A DNA stretch of 64,000 bases from a virus. The translations under genes were made by a program, and so were the position numbers. The stretch is from the IMG/VR virus record IMGVR_UViG_3300035698_034402, positions 1 to 64,000 of that record; one strand, 5' to 3'. The notes beneath the pieces were generated by a model. That model saw only the letters and a program-made list of their open reading frames with translations. It ran no database searches and was not told where the DNA came from. Every line of letters begins with the position of its first letter. Within the stretch, counting starts at the first letter, position 1. Of this stretch, positions 21,263 to 48,759 are shown in pieces.

Positions 21263-22405
21263 GTGCTTACAGCTGAAACAGCTATTTTGCTTGATGATTT
21301 TAGCCAATGTCCTGCGGGGGCTGTTCGTATCGGCGACCGTGTGATGACCGCGGACGAGAGCAGGCAGCTGCAATCGCAGCCGGTAGTGGGGCTTCGTAGT
21401 GCTTCCGCGGATTGCTATCATGCGGAGTTTTCCGAGCAGAACCGAAGGAAAGAGCGAAAGACTTATGTAGTTGCTGCGTCTCCAGAAACGGAGATTTTGT
21501 CTTTATACGATCCGGGATCGCGGGAGATGTCGGGGCGAACACCCAGTTTTAATGCCTTTGTTGCGGGACCTCGTTCGGCGCAGTTCCGTGGCGTGTTGCA
21601 TGGCGGTCTGTATGACGATGCCTCCATGCCTAGCGACTCTCGCGATTTATTGTTGGGAATGTTATTGGGCGACGGCTATTACGCGCCTAGTAGCCAGTCT
21701 GGAGTGTATCTTTCATGTTACGATCCTACGTTGATAGACGATACCCGGGAGTATTTGCACGGCTTGGGGCTTGTGGCACGGAGTACTGCAGCGCGCCCGG
21801 AGTTATATCGCCTGGTGCCTTTCGGACGAAGTGAGGGGCGTTATTACGCATTTGCTAGTAACGATCCGGCACTGGCTATGCTTAGAGATTTGGGCGTTGA
21901 GCGCAAGCTTGCCCACGAAAAGGTGATTCCCGAGGTAGGCTATAGCTGGTCGAATGCGTCCGTGGCTCGTTTGCTATCCGGGCTGCTAGTGACTGACGGA
22001 TCAATTTTCTCCCCGTGTGACAGAAGTCACGGCGCGGTGTTTGTTTCGTTTGCTTCAACATCGGAACGTATGGTTCACCAGATCGCGGAATTGCTTAAGA
22101 CGCGATTTGGCGTTCACGATTGTCGATTTGTCTCTCATAGCGGCGAGAGAAACAACGCTCTGCATACGTTGAGAGTTATGTCGGCTTACTCGGTGCGGAG
22201 ATTGCTTCGCACGATACCGCTATTCGGCGTAAAGAAATTGCGGGCGGCACAACTTATGCGTTCGTGGACAACGAAGAAAGAACGTCTGTACGGCTGTTTG
22301 AAGCGCGGACCGGTAGTGCATCGCGGGAGCGAAGAGTGCGTAAGCATTCAGATCCCAGCGGAATCGGTGGTGCTCGGCTGCGGACTTATTGCGAGGGTTG
22401 ATTAA
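21263..22405 (+). CDS. free-standing intein-derived LAGLIDADG homing endonuclease
   Basis: LLGMLLGDG and LSGLLVTDG; intein-like ends (LTAETAILLDD...IGDRVM; CVSIQI...GLIA) but no Cys1 or terminal HN; in-frame TAG two codons upstream. Confidence 0.75.
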   Translation: MLTAETAILLDDFSQCPAGAVRIGDRVMTADESRQLQSQPVVGLRSASADCYHAEFSEQNRRKERKTYVVAASPETEILSLYDPGSREMSGRTPSFNAFVAGPRSAQFRGVLHGGLYDDASMPSDSRDLLLGMLLGDGYYAPSSQSGVYLSCYDPTLIDDTREYLHGLGLVARSTAARPELYRLVPFGRSEGRYYAFASNDPALAMLRDLGVERKLAHEKVIPEVGYSWSNASVARLLSGLLVTDGSIFSPCDRSHGAVFVSFASTSERMVHQIAELLKTRFGVHDCRFVSHSGERNNALHTLRVMSAYSVRRLLRTIPLFGVKKLRAAQLMRSWTTKKERLYGCLKRGPVVHRGSEECVSIQIPAESVVLGCGLIARVD

Positions 22406-39539: not shown

Positions 39540-42434
39540 ATGAGCTACGTTGTTCCCCAAGTCAAAGTGTTTCAGGAGTTCACGCAGACTCCCGCGGCCA
39601 TTACGAACCCGCTGTACGCGTTCATCGTCGGCCCGAATTTCTATCTATGCAAATATGCCGACGGTGAGGGGGAGCTGGGTCAATATGATCCGGATGCTGA
39701 TACCGCGTACAGCTGGCCGAATCGCCCCGCTGGAGCTGTTGTGGACCAGAGTTTCACCAAGGTGTACGTGAAGGACGCCTTGTTGCGCTTCTACAGCAAT
39801 ACCGCTGGAGACGTGTCCGACGAAATTCTGGCGGTGTATGGCTACAACAATCGCGTCCGGGCTACAGGTGTGAATTTTGCGGCTAACGGTACCACGTATC
39901 CGCGGGACACCGGATTGCCTGCTCGCGACGTCACCGTGGGCGACATCGCCCGGGTCTTCGCTAACGTGGGCGGTACTACTTACGAGCTGTGGTCTAAAAT
40001 TACCGCTCTTGTAGCGGATCAAGCTACCCCGGTAGTCGGCTCGGCAACCGCGGACTCCGACAATTCTCCCGATTACGCTGTTAACTGCTGTGGCGCGGCT
40101 AATGGGCTGGATAACGGGGCCGACGCTGCGGTATCAAACACCGGCACTGGCGGAGGGCTGCGCAGCATCGCTGTAATCGCTGATTCTGCCGGGTACGCTG
40201 GTGTCGTTGCGGGTTATCCGCGGGAGATTTACACCGTCGTGATCACCACGGCTTCCGTGGGCGGAGCTGGTGCTTTGGCTACGGTAACTAGCGGCAGCGG
40301 CACAGACGACGCCACGAGTGTGGCTATCGCGGCTACTGGCCAGGAAATCGGCTCCCGGGGGTTGACCTTCGATTGGGGCGGCTCCGGGGAATGGCGGGTC
40401 GGCGATACGTGGGTGATTTACGCGCGGCAGGACTTCCGGGCGCCGTCTCTGACCACCGGCGGAGGGTTCGACAGTGACGAGGACACCACCTACATTCTCG
40501 AAGTCACCGCGGGCGGTGCTGGCGGCAGCGCGCAGGTTTCGGTGTCCACGACCAATGGCCTGGACGTCAGCGGACCGCACACTGTGACCGAGGACGTACC
40601 GGTCACGATCGGCACTAAGGGGGTAACGGTCACTTTCGGTGACGGGGTGGGCGCGTGTTACGGCGACAGCTCGTCATCATCGGCGTCTCCCTGCCCGGCG
40701 CAATTCAACAAGGGCGACAAGTGGTATGTCGCGTGTACCGGTCGGGAGGGCGAGGGATACAAGACCCTGGTGTTAGCTGACGATTTGCCGTCGCAGCTAC
40801 GTGCGGCTTTCAACTCGCAAGGAGGCGCGGGCTCCAGTTCTTCGTTGGTTGAGGCTTCGGATCTCAATTTGCAGTTATTTGTCAGCCGGGATATCCAGCT
40901 GCCGCGAGAGAACTTCCCTGACGCGCCTAATGTCAACTGGACCCAGAACGCCACACAGATCATCCTGGAATCCGGCGCTAAGGTGTACCAGAGCGACTTC
41001 CTGGACGCCTTGGGCAACTCCGTGGCTTTGAATCTGGATGCGGATAGCGACGAACTCTACAGCATCTGTTATGTGGAGTACCGGGCGCTACTGCAGACCT
41101 ACGCTACAGATATTAATACCATCTCCAGCATTAGCGACGTGGTCACCACTTTGGGCGAAGTAAGCACGGATAATCCGCTGGCGCTGGCAGTCTGGTACGC
41201 TCTACGAAACTCCAACGGTACAGCGGTCAAGTACATGGCCGTGCCGACTAATGATCTCGCTGGTTACAGCTTGGCCCTGGATAAGGCCACCGGACGTCGG
41301 GACATCTACACCGTCGTACCGACGACGCGGAATGCTGTGATTCAGAATACTATTGCCGCCCACGTGGACGAGATGTCTGATGAAGAGAAGGGTCAATGGA
41401 GAATTGCCTTTTTCAACGGGGCTTCTTCGGCCATCGATCCTCTGGTTGCGGAGGACGAGTACTACCCGATCGGCGGTACTGACCAGTATGAAGCAGACGA
41501 CTTGCTGGCAACGATCGGCGATGATCCCGACGCTACAGGTACCCAGCACACCCGAGTGACTTGGGATCCGACGGCTTATCCGGCAGGTGGCGGATTCGTG
41601 GACAAGGGCGTCCGTGCGGGCGACTTGTTCCGAATTAATTACACCGGCGACGGATTTGGCGGCTCCAGCTACGATGACTACGTAATCGACTCCGTCTTGA
41701 GCAATCAGACCTTGAGGTTGGTCAGCGGACCCAGTTCTCCGATCACTGTGGCCAGAAAGTTCTCTGTGCAACGGAGCTTTACTCGGGCGGAGGAGGCCGC
41801 GGAATACGGCGAGAAGGCTGGATCGTTCTCCGCTCGCCGAGTTTACTACGTGTGGCCCGACGTGATCGAAGATGCTTCGGGAGTTCAGGTCGAAGGGGTC
41901 TATCTCTGTGCGGCGATCGCCGGGCTGATTTCCGGAGTTGTGCCGCAGCAGGGGCTAACCAACGTGGCCATCGAGGGGTTCAGCGACGTGACGCGGACCA
42001 CGGATTACATGGCCGAGTCGCAGCTGAACGCTATGGCCGGAGCGGGAGTGTGGGTCGTAGCCGAAGATCCGGATACCGGGCAGATCTACTCGCGGCACGA
42101 GGTAAGTACCTGTACTACCGACCTGAACTGTCGCGAGCTGATGGTAGTGAAGAACGTTGACGCTATCTCGTATACATTCTTGAATCAGCTGGCGCCGTAT
42201 ATCGGGCGGGCCAACGTGACTCCTCGCTTTCTGATCCAGCTGCGGCGGGCCGTTATGGGCACAGTGGATTACCTGAAGTCCAATGGCTCGACTCCGAGTC
42301 TCGGAGGGCAGTTGATCGAGGCCGAGTTGACCGAATTGCGGCAGCATGCGGTGAATCTGGATCACGTGATTGCGACTCTTAGTATCACGGTGCCCTACCC
42401 GCTCAACGTCGTGAGCCTGCATTTGGTCATCTGA
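39540..42434 (+). CDS. contractile tail sheath protein
   Basis: YVVP.V.V.QE N-terminus; C-terminal AAIAG, LNAMAGAGV, RELMVVKNVD, PYPLN; large inserted domains. Confidence 0.8.
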   Translation: MSYVVPQVKVFQEFTQTPAAITNPLYAFIVGPNFYLCKYADGEGELGQYDPDADTAYSWPNRPAGAVVDQSFTKVYVKDALLRFYSNTAGDVSDEILAVYGYNNRVRATGVNFAANGTTYPRDTGLPARDVTVGDIARVFANVGGTTYELWSKITALVADQATPVVGSATADSDNSPDYAVNCCGAANGLDNGADAAVSNTGTGGGLRSIAVIADSAGYAGVVAGYPREIYTVVITTASVGGAGALATVTSGSGTDDATSVAIAATGQEIGSRGLTFDWGGSGEWRVGDTWVIYARQDFRAPSLTTGGGFDSDEDTTYILEVTAGGAGGSAQVSVSTTNGLDVSGPHTVTEDVPVTIGTKGVTVTFGDGVGACYGDSSSSSASPCPAQFNKGDKWYVACTGREGEGYKTLVLADDLPSQLRAAFNSQGGAGSSSSLVEASDLNLQLFVSRDIQLPRENFPDAPNVNWTQNATQIILESGAKVYQSDFLDALGNSVALNLDADSDELYSICYVEYRALLQTYATDINTISSISDVVTTLGEVSTDNPLALAVWYALRNSNGTAVKYMAVPTNDLAGYSLALDKATGRRDIYTVVPTTRNAVIQNTIAAHVDEMSDEEKGQWRIAFFNGASSAIDPLVAEDEYYPIGGTDQYEADDLLATIGDDPDATGTQHTRVTWDPTAYPAGGGFVDKGVRAGDLFRINYTGDGFGGSSYDDYVIDSVLSNQTLRLVSGPSSPITVARKFSVQRSFTRAEEAAEYGEKAGSFSARRVYYVWPDVIEDASGVQVEGVYLCAAIAGLISGVVPQQGLTNVAIEGFSDVTRTTDYMAESQLNAMAGAGVWVVAEDPDTGQIYSRHEVSTCTTDLNCRELMVVKNVDAISYTFLNQLAPYIGRANVTPRFLIQLRRAVMGTVDYLKSNGSTPSLGGQLIEAELTELRQHAVNLDHVIATLSITVPYPLNVVSLHLVI

Positions 42435-43141: not shown

Positions 43142-45979
43142 ATGAGCGGTCTTTCCGGAATGGGACTTGGGGTCGCAGCACTTCGTCAGGATCGCGCAGC
43201 ACATCCTATCCTTTCGATGCCGCCCGGCACTTTGTTCGTTTCCGAAGTGGTCGATTGCATTGCTCATTACGGCACGGTCAAGGTAAATCCGGCGGTCGGT
43301 GGCGTCACCACCGGGGTGCCCTTGTGGGGGTCCAGTGGCATCTGGGGTCCGCGACGGATCGGCGCCGCTTACCCGCCGCATACTAAAGTGCTCTGTTTGC
43401 GCCCCCCAGGCGAAGACTTCTGTTATGTGCTGGGGGCGATTCCTCACTGGATCATTTCTCCCCAGTTCAATATGGTTCCCGATTGGCTAGTGATGGGCTC
43501 GATGTCCGGATTGGGGTTCGATCGGGTCCATTCCGGGCTTACTGAGCGTCCCAAAGGAGTCTCCCCGGACATCAATTTCGGCGCCGGGCGCCCAGCTGAC
43601 GAATTGCCCGGAGATGACGGGTTCATTAATGAGTTAGGGGTGAGCTACGGGATGGGGCGTTTGATGGCCTGGTTACGCGCCAGCCATTTTTGTGGCGTCG
43701 AAGCCCACTGGGTAGACGATCTGCTGCGGCTCAAGGGAGTGAATCTGGAGATAATGACCTCGTCCAGTGAGCTGCGCGCTTTCAACGACGAGGGAGAATT
43801 TACCGAGCTGTTGCGCTGGGGTCCGTATCCTTGGGAAACAACGGGGATTTACCTTCCGAACACGGATTTCACGAAACACGGGCACGGGCGGTGGGAGACC
43901 GCAGCGGACGGGATCAACCGAGCCGGTCGTGAGCCTCAAGAGGACGACCAGGCGGGTATCTGGAGAGTACAACGTTTCCGCGGGTACCTGGGGGATTTGG
44001 AACGTACCGTTGTGGCCTTGCCAAAGGCCAGCACCTTCGCCGAAGGCGTGGAGCAAATGTCCCGGGACACCGTGTTGCCGGGACTATTGGACGCAGGCTT
44101 CGGAATCGACGGCGCTTACCATATCCGTTCAGCTAAGAGAGTGCTCTTCGAGAAAACTATAGTGCTACCTGTCCCCAAGGAGAAGATTGCTCCTGACGAC
44201 CCGACAGGAGACAGCGCCGACGACTACAAAGCTGCGGGCATCTTTGGCACCGGCGAGGACCACACCAAGCAAGAGCCTGAACTACTCGACGATCAAGCCG
44301 GGCTGCGCTCTTTCTTGTTCTACGAGCGTCACGCTTTGCTTTACGGCTACAACGCCAATCTTCCTTTCATCCGGCACACCAAAGACTGGTTTCTACCTGA
44401 AGAACTGGATGTGTTGAATGAGCTGGGGGTCCGTTCCGGGCTCTACTACTCGGACGAACCAGTCGATGACATAGCGTTCTGGATGCCGCTGCCTGCCAGC
44501 GTGGACCTGGACGTGGACCATCGAGGGAAGGCTAAATACTTTGTCGGACGAGCTTTGCAGTTGTTCGACGAGGACGGCAGCATCATTTTGGAGGACGCTT
44601 ACGGCAGCCAGATTCGTATGGAGGGCGGTAACATTATCCTGGCCGCGCGGAACGACGTGCTTTTGCAGCCGGGTCGGAATGCCGTACTGATGCCTCCGAA
44701 CGACCTGATTCTACGTTGCGGTCACTCTGCGGATCTAACAGCCAGCCACGGGGACGTGCGGATCAAAGCCCAGGGCAATTTGATGATGGCCGCAGTGGAC
44801 AAGGGAGTGCTCATCGAAGCCCGAGACAGCGGCGGCACTCCGGATTGGGAACAGCTGGGCGAGGGCGTCGAGAGTCGGGGGGTATTGGTCAAGGCGCTCA
44901 ATTCCAGCGTGATTACCATGAGCAAGGACGCCTACTTCCGTGCCGGGGCTTTGGAAAGTGACCGGACGTCGGGGCAGTTGCATCTGGACGCGGGAGAAGG
45001 CGCTGGGCCGCTGTATCTGCACGGCGGGACAATTGCCGGGCGGGCGCTAACTCGGGTCGAGTTCGTTACCGGCACTACGGGGGAGTCAGAGAACGCGGTG
45101 TCCATGGACCTGACTACCTCCGAGTTTCTCCTGGGCGGCAAGGCCTTGCTCAACGCCACGATCGGGGCGGCCAACGTTAATCTGACCCACGAGGAGTATG
45201 ACACCAGTCTCAAGGTTATCGGCAGCATTTTCGCCTCTAAGGATGCGTGGCTTGGCGGCGGGTTGGTAGTCGGCGGGATCATTCGTGGCAATGGGCAGTT
45301 GTTGCTGCATGGTAGTATTACCGCTGACGGAAACGGCCTGTTTACGGGATCGCTCGTTGCCCATGGTATTGCAGCTGATACCGGGGCTCCGTTCTTGGCG
45401 TCGACCGGCGATTCGTTTAACGCTTCAGAGCAGGTCCCGCCGGACCATCCAACGATGGGCCAGGATATTACGGATTCCGAGGCTGAGCGCTCGCGTAACG
45501 CGTTACAGCAAGCGAGAGTTAGCGACAACCAGGCAATAACTCAGCTCAAAGAGGATCTTTACGGGGACGACAGTCGGTTCGCCAGCGAGATGTTAGTAGA
45601 TCAGGCGGTATTCTCTTTCCGTACTCCGGACGATTACGGCACAGCGCAGGATTTCGTCTGGTTCGAGTCGCGTTGGCAGGAGCTAAACCGCAAGATTTTC
45701 GGGAAAACTGCGGTCTGGGACGAGATCGCTTTACGTACGCCGGGGACTGGGCGGCAGACCATGCCCTATCCTGGTTACGAGGTTTGGGGAGAGGAAACTG
45801 CCTTTCGTATACTGGAAAGCAAGTTGTTCGACTTCTCGACGGGTACGGCCAAACGACGCACTGGTGGAGAAGATGCGGGGGCGGAAACTAGTCAGCCGGG
45901 GATCGAGGACGACCTGGCGCTAGGCGAAGTGCAGAGGCGGACTCTTGCTGATGCTTACATTGTGACCTTACAGAACTGA
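43142..45979 (+). CDS. putative baseplate central spike (gp5/VgrG-like)
   Basis: OB-like N-terminus; beta-helix-like repeats (DGSIILED..GSQIRMEGGNI; V.G.I.G.G). Confidence 0.55.
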   Translation: MSGLSGMGLGVAALRQDRAAHPILSMPPGTLFVSEVVDCIAHYGTVKVNPAVGGVTTGVPLWGSSGIWGPRRIGAAYPPHTKVLCLRPPGEDFCYVLGAIPHWIISPQFNMVPDWLVMGSMSGLGFDRVHSGLTERPKGVSPDINFGAGRPADELPGDDGFINELGVSYGMGRLMAWLRASHFCGVEAHWVDDLLRLKGVNLEIMTSSSELRAFNDEGEFTELLRWGPYPWETTGIYLPNTDFTKHGHGRWETAADGINRAGREPQEDDQAGIWRVQRFRGYLGDLERTVVALPKASTFAEGVEQMSRDTVLPGLLDAGFGIDGAYHIRSAKRVLFEKTIVLPVPKEKIAPDDPTGDSADDYKAAGIFGTGEDHTKQEPELLDDQAGLRSFLFYERHALLYGYNANLPFIRHTKDWFLPEELDVLNELGVRSGLYYSDEPVDDIAFWMPLPASVDLDVDHRGKAKYFVGRALQLFDEDGSIILEDAYGSQIRMEGGNIILAARNDVLLQPGRNAVLMPPNDLILRCGHSADLTASHGDVRIKAQGNLMMAAVDKGVLIEARDSGGTPDWEQLGEGVESRGVLVKALNSSVITMSKDAYFRAGALESDRTSGQLHLDAGEGAGPLYLHGGTIAGRALTRVEFVTGTTGESENAVSMDLTTSEFLLGGKALLNATIGAANVNLTHEEYDTSLKVIGSIFASKDAWLGGGLVVGGIIRGNGQLLLHGSITADGNGLFTGSLVAHGIAADTGAPFLASTGDSFNASEQVPPDHPTMGQDITDSEAERSRNALQQARVSDNQAITQLKEDLYGDDSRFASEMLVDQAVFSFRTPDDYGTAQDFVWFESRWQELNRKIFGKTAVWDEIALRTPGTGRQTMPYPGYEVWGEETAFRILESKLFDFSTGTAKRRTGGEDAGAETSQPGIEDDLALGEVQRRTLADAYIVTLQN

Positions 45980-45996
45980 AATCCTGGAGAACGCCA

Positions 45997-46227
45997 ATCG
46001 ACTGCCGCCAATTTTTTGACGGTATGAAAGAAGGAGGAAGCCAACCTCCGACTTTCATCGTAAGAGTCGATTAGACAGGAGATCTTCGAGGTCTCAACTA
46101 GCCACCTGGACGTGGCAGTCCGAAGTATGATGCTGGATGCCTCCCTAGTCTGCATCCTCTACGGTGGTGAGTGTCGAAGGGATTAGTTGCCGTCTCCGAA
46201 AGGAGACGAGAGGAGAGGTAACTCTCA
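45997..46227 (+). ncRNA. putative omegaRNA scaffold of IsrB
   Basis: AATCGACT...AGTCGATT closing stem with nested hairpins; GGATGCCTCCCTAGTC...CTCT...CGAAGGG block resembling IscB/IsrB leaders; GAAA tetraloop stem. Confidence 0.65.
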
Positions 46228-47274
46228 ATGTTTGTACCTGTAATTAGCAGTACAGAAAATCCTTTAATGCCTTGTCATCCGGCAAGGGCCAGGGAACTTC
46301 TGGCGAAGGGTAAAGCTGTACGGAAGTTTGACCGAGGATTGTTTTATCTCCGATTGGCCGATCGTGAAGATGGAAAGGTTCAACCGGTGACTGTAGGTAT
46401 CGATCCTGGCTCCAAGAAGGAAGCTTTTAGTGTCAAGTCCGAAGCTCATACCTATTTGAACATCCAAACGGATGCTGTGACTTGGGTTTCCAGACATATT
46501 AAATCCCGGAGAGAAGCCCGTAGAGCCCGGCGTTCTCGGAAGACTCCTTATCGGAAATGTCGCCGAAATCGAAGTGTCAAAAATCGGCTTCCTCCTTCAA
46601 CCCGAGCCCGTTGGGGCTGGAAACTGAGGATCTGCAATTGGTTGGCTCGAAGGTACCCGATTACAACTTTTGTAGTCGAGGACATTAAGGCTGTCTCTCG
46701 AAAAGGACAGCGCCGCTGGAATCGATCCTTCAGTCCTCTACAGATCGGCAAGAACTGGTTCTATAAAGAGCTGGAAAAGTTAGCTAAAGTCAAAACTTAC
46801 TTCGGTTATGAAACCAAGGAGTTTCGGGATTCTCTAGGTCTCAAGAAGATCAGTAAGAAGCTGTCGGATCGATTCGAGGCCCACTGTGTTGACAGCTGGG
46901 TTCTGGCAAACTCCGAAACAGGAGGACATCTTCGGCCAGATGATACCGAGATAATGTATGTCGTTCCTCTGCAATTTCATCGCCGACAACTTCATCGTTT
47001 CTTGTCAAAAAATGGAGAGCGTAAACGTTACGGGGGGACAATTAGCCTGGGATTTAAGAGGGGGACTTGGGTAAAACATCCAAAGCACGGGGTGGGATAT
47101 ATCGGCGGCTGCAAAAATGAGAGGCTTAGTTTACATGGACTTTGGGGCGGAGAGAGACTTTGTCAGAATGCAAGACCCGAGGACTGTGTTATGCTGACTC
47201 GGTGTTCTTGGCGGGTGCGCAAGGGCGAGGTATCCCGAGAGAGCTTGAGTGGGAAATCGCAGAGAGCAGCGTGA
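46228..47274 (+). CDS. isrB: IsrB OMEGA RNA-guided nickase (IS200/IS605 family)
   Basis: PLMP domain; RuvC-I GIDPG; Arg-rich bridge helix; RuvC-II VVED; RuvC-III HCVD; no HNH; 348 aa; lower GC than flanks. Confidence 0.8.
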   Translation: MFVPVISSTENPLMPCHPARARELLAKGKAVRKFDRGLFYLRLADREDGKVQPVTVGIDPGSKKEAFSVKSEAHTYLNIQTDAVTWVSRHIKSRREARRARRSRKTPYRKCRRNRSVKNRLPPSTRARWGWKLRICNWLARRYPITTFVVEDIKAVSRKGQRRWNRSFSPLQIGKNWFYKELEKLAKVKTYFGYETKEFRDSLGLKKISKKLSDRFEAHCVDSWVLANSETGGHLRPDDTEIMYVVPLQFHRRQLHRFLSKNGERKRYGGTISLGFKRGTWVKHPKHGVGYIGGCKNERLSLHGLWGGERLCQNARPEDCVMLTRCSWRVRKGEVSRESLSGKSQRAA

Positions 47275-47299
47275 TTTTGGTACTTTAAGAGGCAGAATA

Positions 47300-48340
47300 A
47301 TGAAGAAACAAGGCCATCTGAGTAAATTTCCTGAGGAGCAGCTGGTCGAAGCCAAGAGTTTGTCTGGCAGATTTGATCGTGCGGACCAGTCTCTCTCCCC
47401 TCTGGAACGTGCGGTAGCGGAGCACCAAGGCCTGTTGAACGAAGAGGGGCAGATTAAACCGGAGCACCTGCGGTCACAGGTGACGGCCCCAGAGTTAAAT
47501 TTGCCGCCGGGGGTCACTGCTCCCGTGCCGCTGGAAGATCTAAAGCCGGAGATTGCCGCGCAGGTGGAAGAGCAGGTGCAGGAGATTCGAGGCGAAGCGG
47601 CGCCGTCAGCGGACGTCGACGCCGACAAGCAGGTCAGTGCGCCGCTGCCCCCACCGGACTTCAGCGACGGCGAGCCGGAGGACCCGGGGCTTCCACCGGG
47701 GGATCCCGGAGAGATTAAAGGCGCCGGAAGCAAGGTAAGCATTGATGTAGGCGCCGTGGTGGCCAACGCTCTGGAGCCGGTGCGATGCAGCCATTGCGGC
47801 TGGGACATCCGCGGAGCCTTTCAGAGCCCCCCGTTTACCGAAGACGACAAACTGGCTTTTGTTCGCCATATCATGAGCAAGACTGGTCGTTTCTACAAGA
47901 CTTTCGAGGTATTTGACGGCCAGTTGAAAGTAACTTTGAGATCCCGTTCTCAGCGCGAATCGGAGATGATCCTGGATCGGGCGCGTAAGGATCTGCACGA
48001 GGAAGCTGTAACCAGCATGGGAGATATGGCCGCTCAGATGCAGCGTTATCACATGTCGGCGGCGGTGCACAAGTTGGCCCCCGCTGTGGACGCAGGAGAG
48101 ATAGAGAAATTCCCGTTCCTGCAGGATGTAAATCCTCCGGAGGCCTATGACAGCGATCCCCAGCCGGAGTTTGATGCAGTGAAAGCAGTTGATAATGAAG
48201 TGTTCAGCAGCGGGCGGCCGACTGCTTTGTATACGGTAGTTTTCGCGCTGTGGTTGGAGTTCGAGAAGCTCTATGGTTGGTTCTCATCCAAGGCCCATGA
48301 ACCGGATTTTTGGAAAGCAGCCGCTGGGGATCACTCTTAG
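47300..48340 (+). CDS. putative tail assembly chaperone
   Basis: Upstream of the tape measure gene; CSHC; ends PDFWK with a -1-frame overlap into the next ORF. Confidence 0.5.
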   Translation: MKKQGHLSKFPEEQLVEAKSLSGRFDRADQSLSPLERAVAEHQGLLNEEGQIKPEHLRSQVTAPELNLPPGVTAPVPLEDLKPEIAAQVEEQVQEIRGEAAPSADVDADKQVSAPLPPPDFSDGEPEDPGLPPGDPGEIKGAGSKVSIDVGAVVANALEPVRCSHCGWDIRGAFQSPPFTEDDKLAFVRHIMSKTGRFYKTFEVFDGQLKVTLRSRSQRESEMILDRARKDLHEEAVTSMGDMAAQMQRYHMSAAVHKLAPAVDAGEIEKFPFLQDVNPPEAYDSDPQPEFDAVKAVDNEVFSSGRPTALYTVVFALWLEFEKLYGWFSSKAHEPDFWKAAAGDHS

Positions 48341-48759
48341 TACGGGCCGCCGCCAGAGGACTGCTTGATCCAGGAGATGGCTGCCCGTTGACGCGCCATT
48401 ACTCGTTCCGCGAGGCGCTGATTATCAATGAGCTGGCTCGGGAAGAGGGAGTAGAACTCAGCAAGACCATGGCCCAGATGCAGGCCAGCGGTGCCCAGGT
48501 GTTGACTGTCGGAGCTTATGAGAAAGTTTGGTGGAAGCTGTTTGAGCATGCCAGCGATCAGGCCTTACTGGCTTATCAAAGAATGGGCCGACTGATGATG
48601 CCCTGGGACCAGAGTTGGAGTGAAGCTCTGGATCGTACGCAACAACGGGTCTATGAAAGAACCAACGAGATCGGCACTACCGGCCTGAGCGATCAGAGCA
48701 TCGTTAAATTGGTCTCGGAATACGAACGGGAAAAACAACGGCGGGAGCGACAGCCCTAG
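48310..48759 (+). CDS. -1 frameshift extension of the tail chaperone
   Basis: -1 frame; TTG start without RBS, inside GGATTTTTGG. Confidence 0.5.
   Translation: MESSRWGSLLVRAAARGLLDPGDGCPLTRHYSFREALIINELAREEGVELSKTMAQMQASGAQVLTVGAYEKVWWKLFEHASDQALLAYQRMGRLMMPWDQSWSEALDRTQQRVYERTNEIGTTGLSDQSIVKLVSEYEREKQRRERQP

Follow-up and report, generated by a model that had tools for sequence, protein, structure and literature searches.

An IsrB–omega-RNA element in the tail gene region of a large salt-lake phage, with a predicted guide and target-adjacent motif

The IsrB nuclease of the thermophilic bacterium Desulfovirgula thermocuniculi (DtIsrB; PDB 8dmb; Hirano et al. 2022, PMC9581776) is described as nicking the non-target strand beside an NTGA target-adjacent motif (TAM), with residues R323 and Q326 reading G3 and A4 of the TTGA/NTGA TAM and with a guide of 20 nt, the length adopted here. 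In IscB and IsrB systems the guide, about 20 nt immediately 5' of the RNA scaffold, is reported to be encoded outside the transposon end, and cutting at guide plus TAM to restore the element after excision (PMC9581776; 10.1101/2023.03.14.532601). The second of these sources further reports that IscB elements need transcription from an upstream gene, show a co-orientation bias and are accompanied by tnpA for about 1.5% of their genes. Here we describe an isrB gene with its omega-RNA in a phage. The element lies on the + strand of a 64-kb stretch of DNA (hereafter the window), the first 64 kb of the 84,988-bp IMG/VR virus record IMGVR_UViG_3300035698_034402 (CheckV completeness 42%), within a region of tail genes.

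IsrB and its omega-RNA are already well described, and the element in the window is a further example of them on a phage. Nor is the combination of phage and IsrB new, because K2IsrB, which is reported as active with an NTG TAM (PMC9581776), was characterized from a viral metagenome contig and shares this kind of origin. Viral and prophage sequences are given as more than 16% of HEARO-encoding fragments (Goltsman et al. 2022, PMC9755519); the viral HEARO/IscB systems described there bear an HNH domain, unlike the window element, which encodes no HNH and has no match in Rfam 15. The window element is also like the non-autonomous IscB elements of IS200/IS605 (ISGst5; 10.1101/2023.03.14.532601) in that the scaffold would form one transposon end while the guide lies outside it. 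IscB, in contrast to the window protein, has an HNH domain and cuts both strands, and work on elements of the ISGst5 type used a bacterial chromosome and provided TnpA, whereas our record shows no transposase. As that study presents them, a missing tnpA and co-directional placement are the norm for IscB/IsrB elements, and they do not make this locus special.

The protein encoded by the element is 348 amino acids long, and its comparisons identify it as an intact IsrB and not an IscB. Its sole Pfam match is to RRXRR at the N-terminus (PF14239, E = 7.9e-34, residues 3–154), the PLMP motif occupies residues 12–15, and no HNH family was found in it in Pfam at E ≤ 0.01. In a phmmer search of PDB chains, the IsrB in entry 8dmb came out best, at E = 4.8e-37 over residues 3–325 of the query, with an alignment that is continuous over those residues and free of any large insert; IscB chains in the PDB cover residues 3–120 only. 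RuvC residues D59, E151, H219 and D222 are invariant in an alignment of the window protein with three phage-borne relatives and align with DtIsrB. The window protein thus matches DtIsrB over its full length, with PLMP, a split RuvC and no HNH. It also keeps the arginine and glutamine that read the TAM: R310 and Q313 stand opposite residues 473 and 476 of the 8dmb chain in the alignment (R323 and Q326 in DtIsrB numbering), and we therefore predict an NTGA TAM for the window IsrB. Among phage protein families it matches an unnamed one in PHROGs (E = 9.9e-40). An earlier reading of the window from its letters alone (the sequence-only reading) had described an intact PLMP/RuvC protein lacking HNH, and these results agree with it.

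Directly upstream of isrB is a conserved, structured omega-RNA with a variable 5' guide, as judged from folding and from comparison of relatives. The 256 nt before the gene fold at −91.5 kcal/mol (z = −3.7), and 0 of 200 shuffled sequences were as stable. We collected 80 IsrB loci from IMG/VR and compared their 64 distinct upstream regions; for the relatives, RNAalifold predicted 18 pairs, and all but one of these (17) have compensatory changes. With the window left out, a covariance model (R1) was made from 28 relatives; it gave a single match by cmsearch on the two strands of the 64 kb, located at the scaffold (94.3 bits, E = 5.2e-22) and spanning the full model (positions 1–207). Over 70 sources R1 gave 69 matches, at least one of them beside nearly every IsrB gene searched, and it found nothing in three phage relatives without isrB (L007, L087 and L089, described below). 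In an alignment of 68 distinct sequences, which was fitted to R1 and so somewhat favours the structure, 94.9% of cells pair, compared with 66.9% in shuffles and at most 45% with slid partners, and 31 of 33 pairs have compensatory changes. Rfam 15, searched over 45000–48000 on both strands at E ≤ 1, gave 0 matches, and so none to its HEARO model, that of the IscB omega-RNA family. The Infernal check suggested with the sequence-only reading was thus negative with Rfam and positive with the model made from relatives.

Two pseudoknots were recognized in the RNA. The nexus-type one has 93.8% of its cells paired, compared with at most 47% in slid controls, and compensatory changes occur in 4 of its 5 pairs. 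The candidate adaptor-type one joins two hairpin loops through GCCA and UGGC, and its first base pair across relatives is G–C in 25, A–U in 16, G–U in 7 and a mismatched A–C in 5 (Fisher p = 1.6e-4 for covariation, uncorrected for relatedness). We infer that they correspond to the pseudoknots of IsrB omega-RNAs that have been named nexus and adaptor (PMC9581776). A third candidate, pairing 46000–46004 with the GUGGCA loop, was unsupported (54% of cells pair). The upstream RNA is like that of DtIsrB in carrying its guide at the 5' end and in possessing both a nexus-type pseudoknot and a further loop–loop pseudoknot. Its scaffold is shorter than the 262 nt of DtIsrB, at 191 nt going by the model and 231 nt if counted from 45997 to the isrB ATG; the latter figure fits the upstream RNA of about 230 nt that had been seen in the sequence alone. 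The two systems differ also in their setting, a phage as against a thermophilic bacterium, and in that TAM and activity are predicted for the window element.

Conservation among the 64 upstream regions has a sharp edge at 45997 (ATCGAC in the window, GTCAAC in the consensus of the relatives), with none before it, and the R1 match starts at the same base. Because a guide of about 20 nt adjoins the scaffold on its 5' side, the guide is predicted to be 45977–45996, in keeping with the end at 45996 proposed earlier. The stop codon of the upstream gene (45977–45979) falls inside it, and it holds GGAG at 45986–45989, 7 nt before its end. Among relatives, a Shine–Dalgarno-like motif lies 4–10 nt from the 3' end of the guide in 24 of 62, compared with 5–13 of 62 in stretches shifted by 20–60 nt (Fisher p = 1e-5, for counts that are not phylogenetically independent). 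The 20-mer occurs once in the window, even when up to 3 mismatches are allowed. It is followed there by ATCG and not by a TAM, so that the carrier would not be a target.

Homologues of the 945-residue protein encoded upstream of the element were found in two IMG/VR phages (L007, 216.5 kb; L087, 202.6 kb) and on a metagenome contig (L089), at 45–54% identity. Searching viral contigs with the protein yielded one relative, an alignment query two loci (one on the contig already found), and metagenome contigs searched with the C-terminal alignment one more. In all three the two flanking genes are adjacent, 6 nt apart or overlapping, and the insert is absent; the complete 216.5-kb L007 genome has no RRXRR gene. 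The element is thus present at this site in the window and absent from 3 of 3 relatives that are only 45–54% identical in the neighbouring protein, and the guide-plus-TAM junction is predicted rather than seen, because at this distance the exact junction is not readable. The G+C content of the element is 0.49, compared with 0.58 in the flanking genes. With blastn, 43142–48400 matched none of 50,697 phage records. Parts of the window were found in eight salt-lake metagenome runs, no RNA run among them. Contigs of four of these runs showed no joints, and because 47092–47379 was uncovered in all four they are uninformative on an empty allele, the 3' junction and expression.

These contigs also gave some observations on the element itself. 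One from run X1 crosses the 5' junction (45960–46110) without any difference from the window. Contigs from runs X2–X4 carry a variant of the omega-RNA over window positions 46020–46236, with 10–11 differences in about 180–205 nt, and those of X3 and X4 diverge from the window before 46020. This points to a related element that lies elsewhere, at a different site or in a different phage from the habitat.

The far end of the element was approached through its relatives, many of which end in a hairpin, GGGTTTCC, a short spacer and NTG(A/G). With a hand-made search pattern that left 28 loci, the window included, unmatched, and with mechanical calls of open reading frames (ORFs), the first NTG(A/G) lay 10–17 nt past the GGGTTTCC motif in 26 of 33 distinct loci, compared with about 21% by chance (p = 2e-12, uncorrected for relatedness). 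It is ATGA in 17 of these 26, and in 19 the NTG opens an ORF of at least 100 codons. Six bacterial copies have the same end layout, most with a ribosome-site-like motif in the spacer before ATGA. The usual picture that these ends suggest is of an element placed exactly between the ribosome site of a gene and its ATG, with that ATG as the TAM.

In the window there are two candidates. The GTGA at the end of isrB, which the sequence-only reading had offered as an NTGA-like TAM, fits the family spacing (12 nt in a range of 10–17 nt) and as a start codon opens just a 5-codon frame. The ATGA at 47300 lies 41 nt past the degenerate motif, outside the 10–17-nt spacing, but joining 45996 to 47300 restores GGAG, 7 nt and ATG, the commonest layout before the genes of this phage. 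The stretch between the two candidates has the lowest G+C content of 41 gene-upstream stretches in the window, and similar AT-rich tails with a ribosome-site-like motif precede ATGA in bacterial relatives; by this comparison the tail probably belongs to the element. On account of the restored layout, the low G+C content of the tail and the family habit, we favour ATGA at 47300 as the likely TAM, which fits the family pattern and the ribosome-site style of this phage better than GTGA does. GTGA at 47271 is possible from its spacing and, to us, a doubtful second, and it would be surprising if the TAM were neither. Both candidates lead to one predicted target, the guide with NTGA behind it. A resemblance of 45983–45995 to the start of the L007 gene had suggested an insertion within the opening codons of the downstream gene, an idea that was dropped given the family-wide end structure. 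Coordinates are collected in Table 1.

Table 1. Features of the element and its flanking genes, in window coordinates
Feature	Position	Strand	Basis
Upstream phage gene, 945 aa, candidate baseplate spike/hub	43142–45979	+	ORF list; language-model lead
Predicted 20-nt guide, phage sequence outside the element	45977–45996	+	Conservation edge and R1 start at 45997
Omega-RNA scaffold, by analogy with IscB elements the transposon right end	45997–46187	+	R1 match
GCCA in hairpin loop, one side of candidate adaptor-type pseudoknot	46040–46043	+	Partner UGGC 46113–46116
UGGC in nearly invariant GUGGCA loop	46113–46116	+	Partner of 46040–46043
UCCCU loop, 5' side of nexus-type pseudoknot	46142–46146	+	Pairs with 46178–46182
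AGGGA, 3' side of nexus-type pseudoknot	46178–46182	+	Pairs with 46142–46146
Variable 3' part of omega-RNA: hairpin, then isrB ribosome site	46188–46227	+	Fold; not conserved in relatives
isrB, 348 aa, intact; PLMP, RuvC, R310/Q313, no HNH	46228–47274	+	Pfam, PDB match, alignment
Degenerate counterpart of 3'-end hairpin and GGGTTTCC: TCCC, 14-nt loop, then GGGAAATC	47233–47258	+	Alignment of relatives
GTGA, candidate TAM 1, includes isrB stop codon	47271–47274	+	12 nt past degenerate motif
AT-rich tail with AAGAGG (47287–47292) 7 nt before next ATG	47275–47299	+	G+C content 0.32
ATGA, candidate TAM 2, favoured; start codon of downstream gene plus one base	47300–47303	+	Family pattern
Downstream phage gene, 346 aa, no family match	47300–48340	+	ORF list; homologues in L007, L087, L089

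Every ORF of at least 150 codons around the insertion site is on the + strand, and the gene at 39540–42434 matches tail-sheath PHROGs (E = 1e-11), which bears out the co-directional placement in a tail region claimed by the sequence-only reading. Its further claim, that the flanking genes are essential tail genes, is borne out in part: neither the 945-residue upstream protein nor the downstream one has a Pfam or PHROG family match, and a PDB sequence search with the two gave integrase matches at E = 0.05 for one and nothing for the other. ESM Atlas language-model features connect the upstream protein with Gp5_OB and Phage_base_V clusters (scores 0.88–0.90), and its possible resemblance to gp5/VgrG-type spikes is to be taken as a lead and not as a finding. 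The ORF listing starts the downstream gene at GTG 47249, overlapping the end of isrB. Because the L007 and L089 homologues align from ATG 47300 only, that extension is doubtful and probably not real. The same phage has a protein-type homing endonuclease gene, as identified by its domain, in a 380-codon ORF at 21263–22405 with LAGLIDADG_3 (PF14528, E = 9.5e-15, residues 234–318). The window had been said to hold three selfish nucleases, with IsrB as the third; this gene is the one other that we confirmed, and no search for a further one was made.

We lean towards the view that this IsrB insertion element, about 1.3 kb long, belongs to the ISC type related to IS200/IS605, is non-autonomous and is retained or copied by RNA-guided nicking. 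It would run from 45997 to 47270 or 47299, in an intergenic gap of the tail/baseplate gene block. Read-through transcription from the upstream phage gene would give an omega-RNA whose first 20 nt are phage sequence; the co-directional upstream gene and the lack of sigma-70-like promoters over 45300–47600 (none, compared with 1.4 expected) fit the published need for outside transcription, the promoter result being a weak point, as the phage may well use other promoter types. IsrB with this RNA would recognize the 20-nt guide sequence followed by NTGA, a combination that, because the guide in the carrier precedes ATCG, would exist only where the element is absent, and it would nick such an element-free site on its non-target strand. 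Repair of the nick from an element-bearing genome, in a replicating and recombining phage pool, would then retain the element after excision or copy it into element-free relatives at co-infection. As the element would reach up to the next ATG or stop 25 nt short of it, and would bring its own ribosome site, the downstream tail-region gene would stay expressed.

In its position the element is like the free-standing homing endonuclease genes of phages (T4 Seg and Mob, as reviewed in PMC13565253), which also lie between conserved phage genes and are absent from relatives, and whose presumed target is likewise the element-free allele in a co-infecting genome. In contrast to Seg and Mob, recognition would be by an RNA guide and TAM and not by protein, and the product would be a nick and not a double-strand cut. 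RNA-guided homing of the window element into element-free co-infecting phages is a reasonable hypothesis.

PF01797 (Y1 transposase) has 0 matches in the 84,988-bp record, as expected from the sequence-only reading, which had noted no tnpA. Across five phage records, four of them IsrB-bearing (three of those at least 92% complete), no Y1 transposase scored above the cut-off, and RRXRR genes in four other phage records are open frames of 339–433 codons with no internal stops. One of the five, an IMG/VR fragment of 67.8 kb (16% complete), holds three RRXRR genes (L065, L071 and L077) and no Y1 transposase; a stretch of about 1.3 kb is common to these copies, running from where the scaffold begins to about 60 nt beyond the stop codon, hairpin included. 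In phages, then, IsrB elements persist and multiply with no transposase encoded by the phage, leaving either a host transposase acting in trans or nuclease-driven copying, neither of which is favoured by the present evidence.

Several points weigh against retention or copying by nicking at this locus. The viral and metagenome contigs searched with the 945-residue protein or alignments yielded no empty allele from a close relative. Both the TAM and the exact 3' boundary are ambiguous, and the 3'-end hairpin motif is degenerate and unmatched by the family pattern. There is one copy of the element in the 85-kb record, and with that record 42% complete a transposase could lie elsewhere in the phage. 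'Non-restorative homing' into co-infecting phages is listed as theoretical where PMC13565253 treats it, and the literature consulted, as far as it covers the subject, did not yield nick-driven homing for any IsrB. Close relatives abound in bacterial genomes, so that simple acquisition from a host explains the presence of the element equally well.

A rival explanation, which we regard as unlikely without being far-fetched, is a passive passenger that jumped from a host chromosome by means of host TnpA in trans and is now stranded and slowly decaying, the activity of its IsrB being irrelevant to its persistence in the phage. The family is indeed very large and common in bacteria (4517 proteins at E ≤ 1e-40 among 8000 candidates scored); the closest proteins among those scored are 73–77% identical to the window IsrB, the best at 77%, several members come from Chloroflexi metagenome-assembled genomes, and a scan of genome contigs gave cyanobacterial and Syntrophaceae copies at 46–56% identity. 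The degenerate 3' hairpin motif, the single copy and the record without a transposase also suit a passenger. Decay is at odds, however, with a full-length ORF that keeps all catalytic and TAM-reading residues, with an RNA that matches the full covariance model and with the intact RRXRR frames of the four other phage records, and one would expect 1.3 kb of useless DNA, stranded in a structural operon that is tightly packed, to decay or vanish. The molecular evidence that speaks for homing would serve as well for a weapon between phages, in which nicking lowers the yield of element-free relatives or excludes nearby markers, in the way of the free-standing homing endonucleases of T-even phages, and copying is secondary. 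Phage homing endonucleases are described as causing marker exclusion and competitor killing (PMC13565253), and the LAGLIDADG gene in the window shows that this phage tolerates such genes. Nothing here separates weapon from homing, but a single nick is weak and the target would be one 24-bp site that relatives of about 50% identity do not share (the L007 junction differs), and we think a weapon quite improbable.

A third possibility is a domesticated regulator, independent of nuclease activity, in which the RNA–protein complex binds DNA and controls tail genes in the manner of TldR. The element sits inside an operon, directly before a gene start, and repressors derived from TnpB are reported (10.1101/2023.11.30.569447). 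Against this stand the retention of all RuvC catalytic residues, a guide that matches only the site disrupted by the element itself, and phage relatives that manage without the element, and we give this reading hardly any credence.

Beyond this locus, the end layout of the relatives allows a broader reading that is tentative and that we would, on balance, sooner doubt than accept. Taken as a whole, it would make this clade of IsrB elements, whether carried by phages or by bacteria, one of start-codon-seeking modules. Their NTG(A) TAM would usually be the ATG of a co-directional gene and their guide the ribosome-site region of that gene; the displaced signal would be replaced by an ATGA stop–start overlap or by the element's own ribosome site; essential operons would be occupied at little cost, with transcription free; and in transposase-free phages the RNA-guided nick alone would copy the element into element-free co-infecting genomes. 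The start-codon habit of the far end was not found in the literature searched, and the locus and TAM lists of Hirano and of Altae-Tran 2021, or Goltsman's list of viral HEARO contigs, may record it or include relatives of the window element.

The collected loci provided further observations on relatives of the element. Two phages that are 87% identical over 3.3 kb have it in the same intergenic gap, 17 nt apart (L017:2230–3520 and L004:2070–3370). A 17-mer starting ATGGAGA is found on the 3' side of the element in L017, whereas in L004 it is on the 5' side and forms the guide; in L004 the ATGG of the next gene is also preceded by a 17-nt tail, additional to the element of L017, that contains a motif resembling a ribosome site; the offset may reflect a local re-insertion or two separate insertions beside two ATGG motifs. 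Second R1 matches away from the isrB of the locus (L023:1999–2181, L076:417–645, L032:217–383 and L014:2427–2589) may represent omega-RNAs that stand alone, or else what is left of further elements. The 189.6-kb record of L017 has a second RRXRR gene in a 429-codon open frame, the best RRXRR match (G002:C1:160060–160578). Its size fits the IscB type, and elements of the IsrB and IscB types may thus occur in one phage.

The window provides a clean pair of IsrB and omega-RNA from a large salt-lake phage, with a guide and a TAM class that can be predicted. A far end that abuts the start codon of the next gene is a pattern suggested by some 60 relatives. If true, this start-codon rule would help to explain the published co-orientation bias of IscB and IsrB elements, and it would account for the survival of such elements within phage operons that are essential. 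Nick-driven homing between phages, if true, would be an RNA-guided counterpart of the classical phage homing endonucleases.

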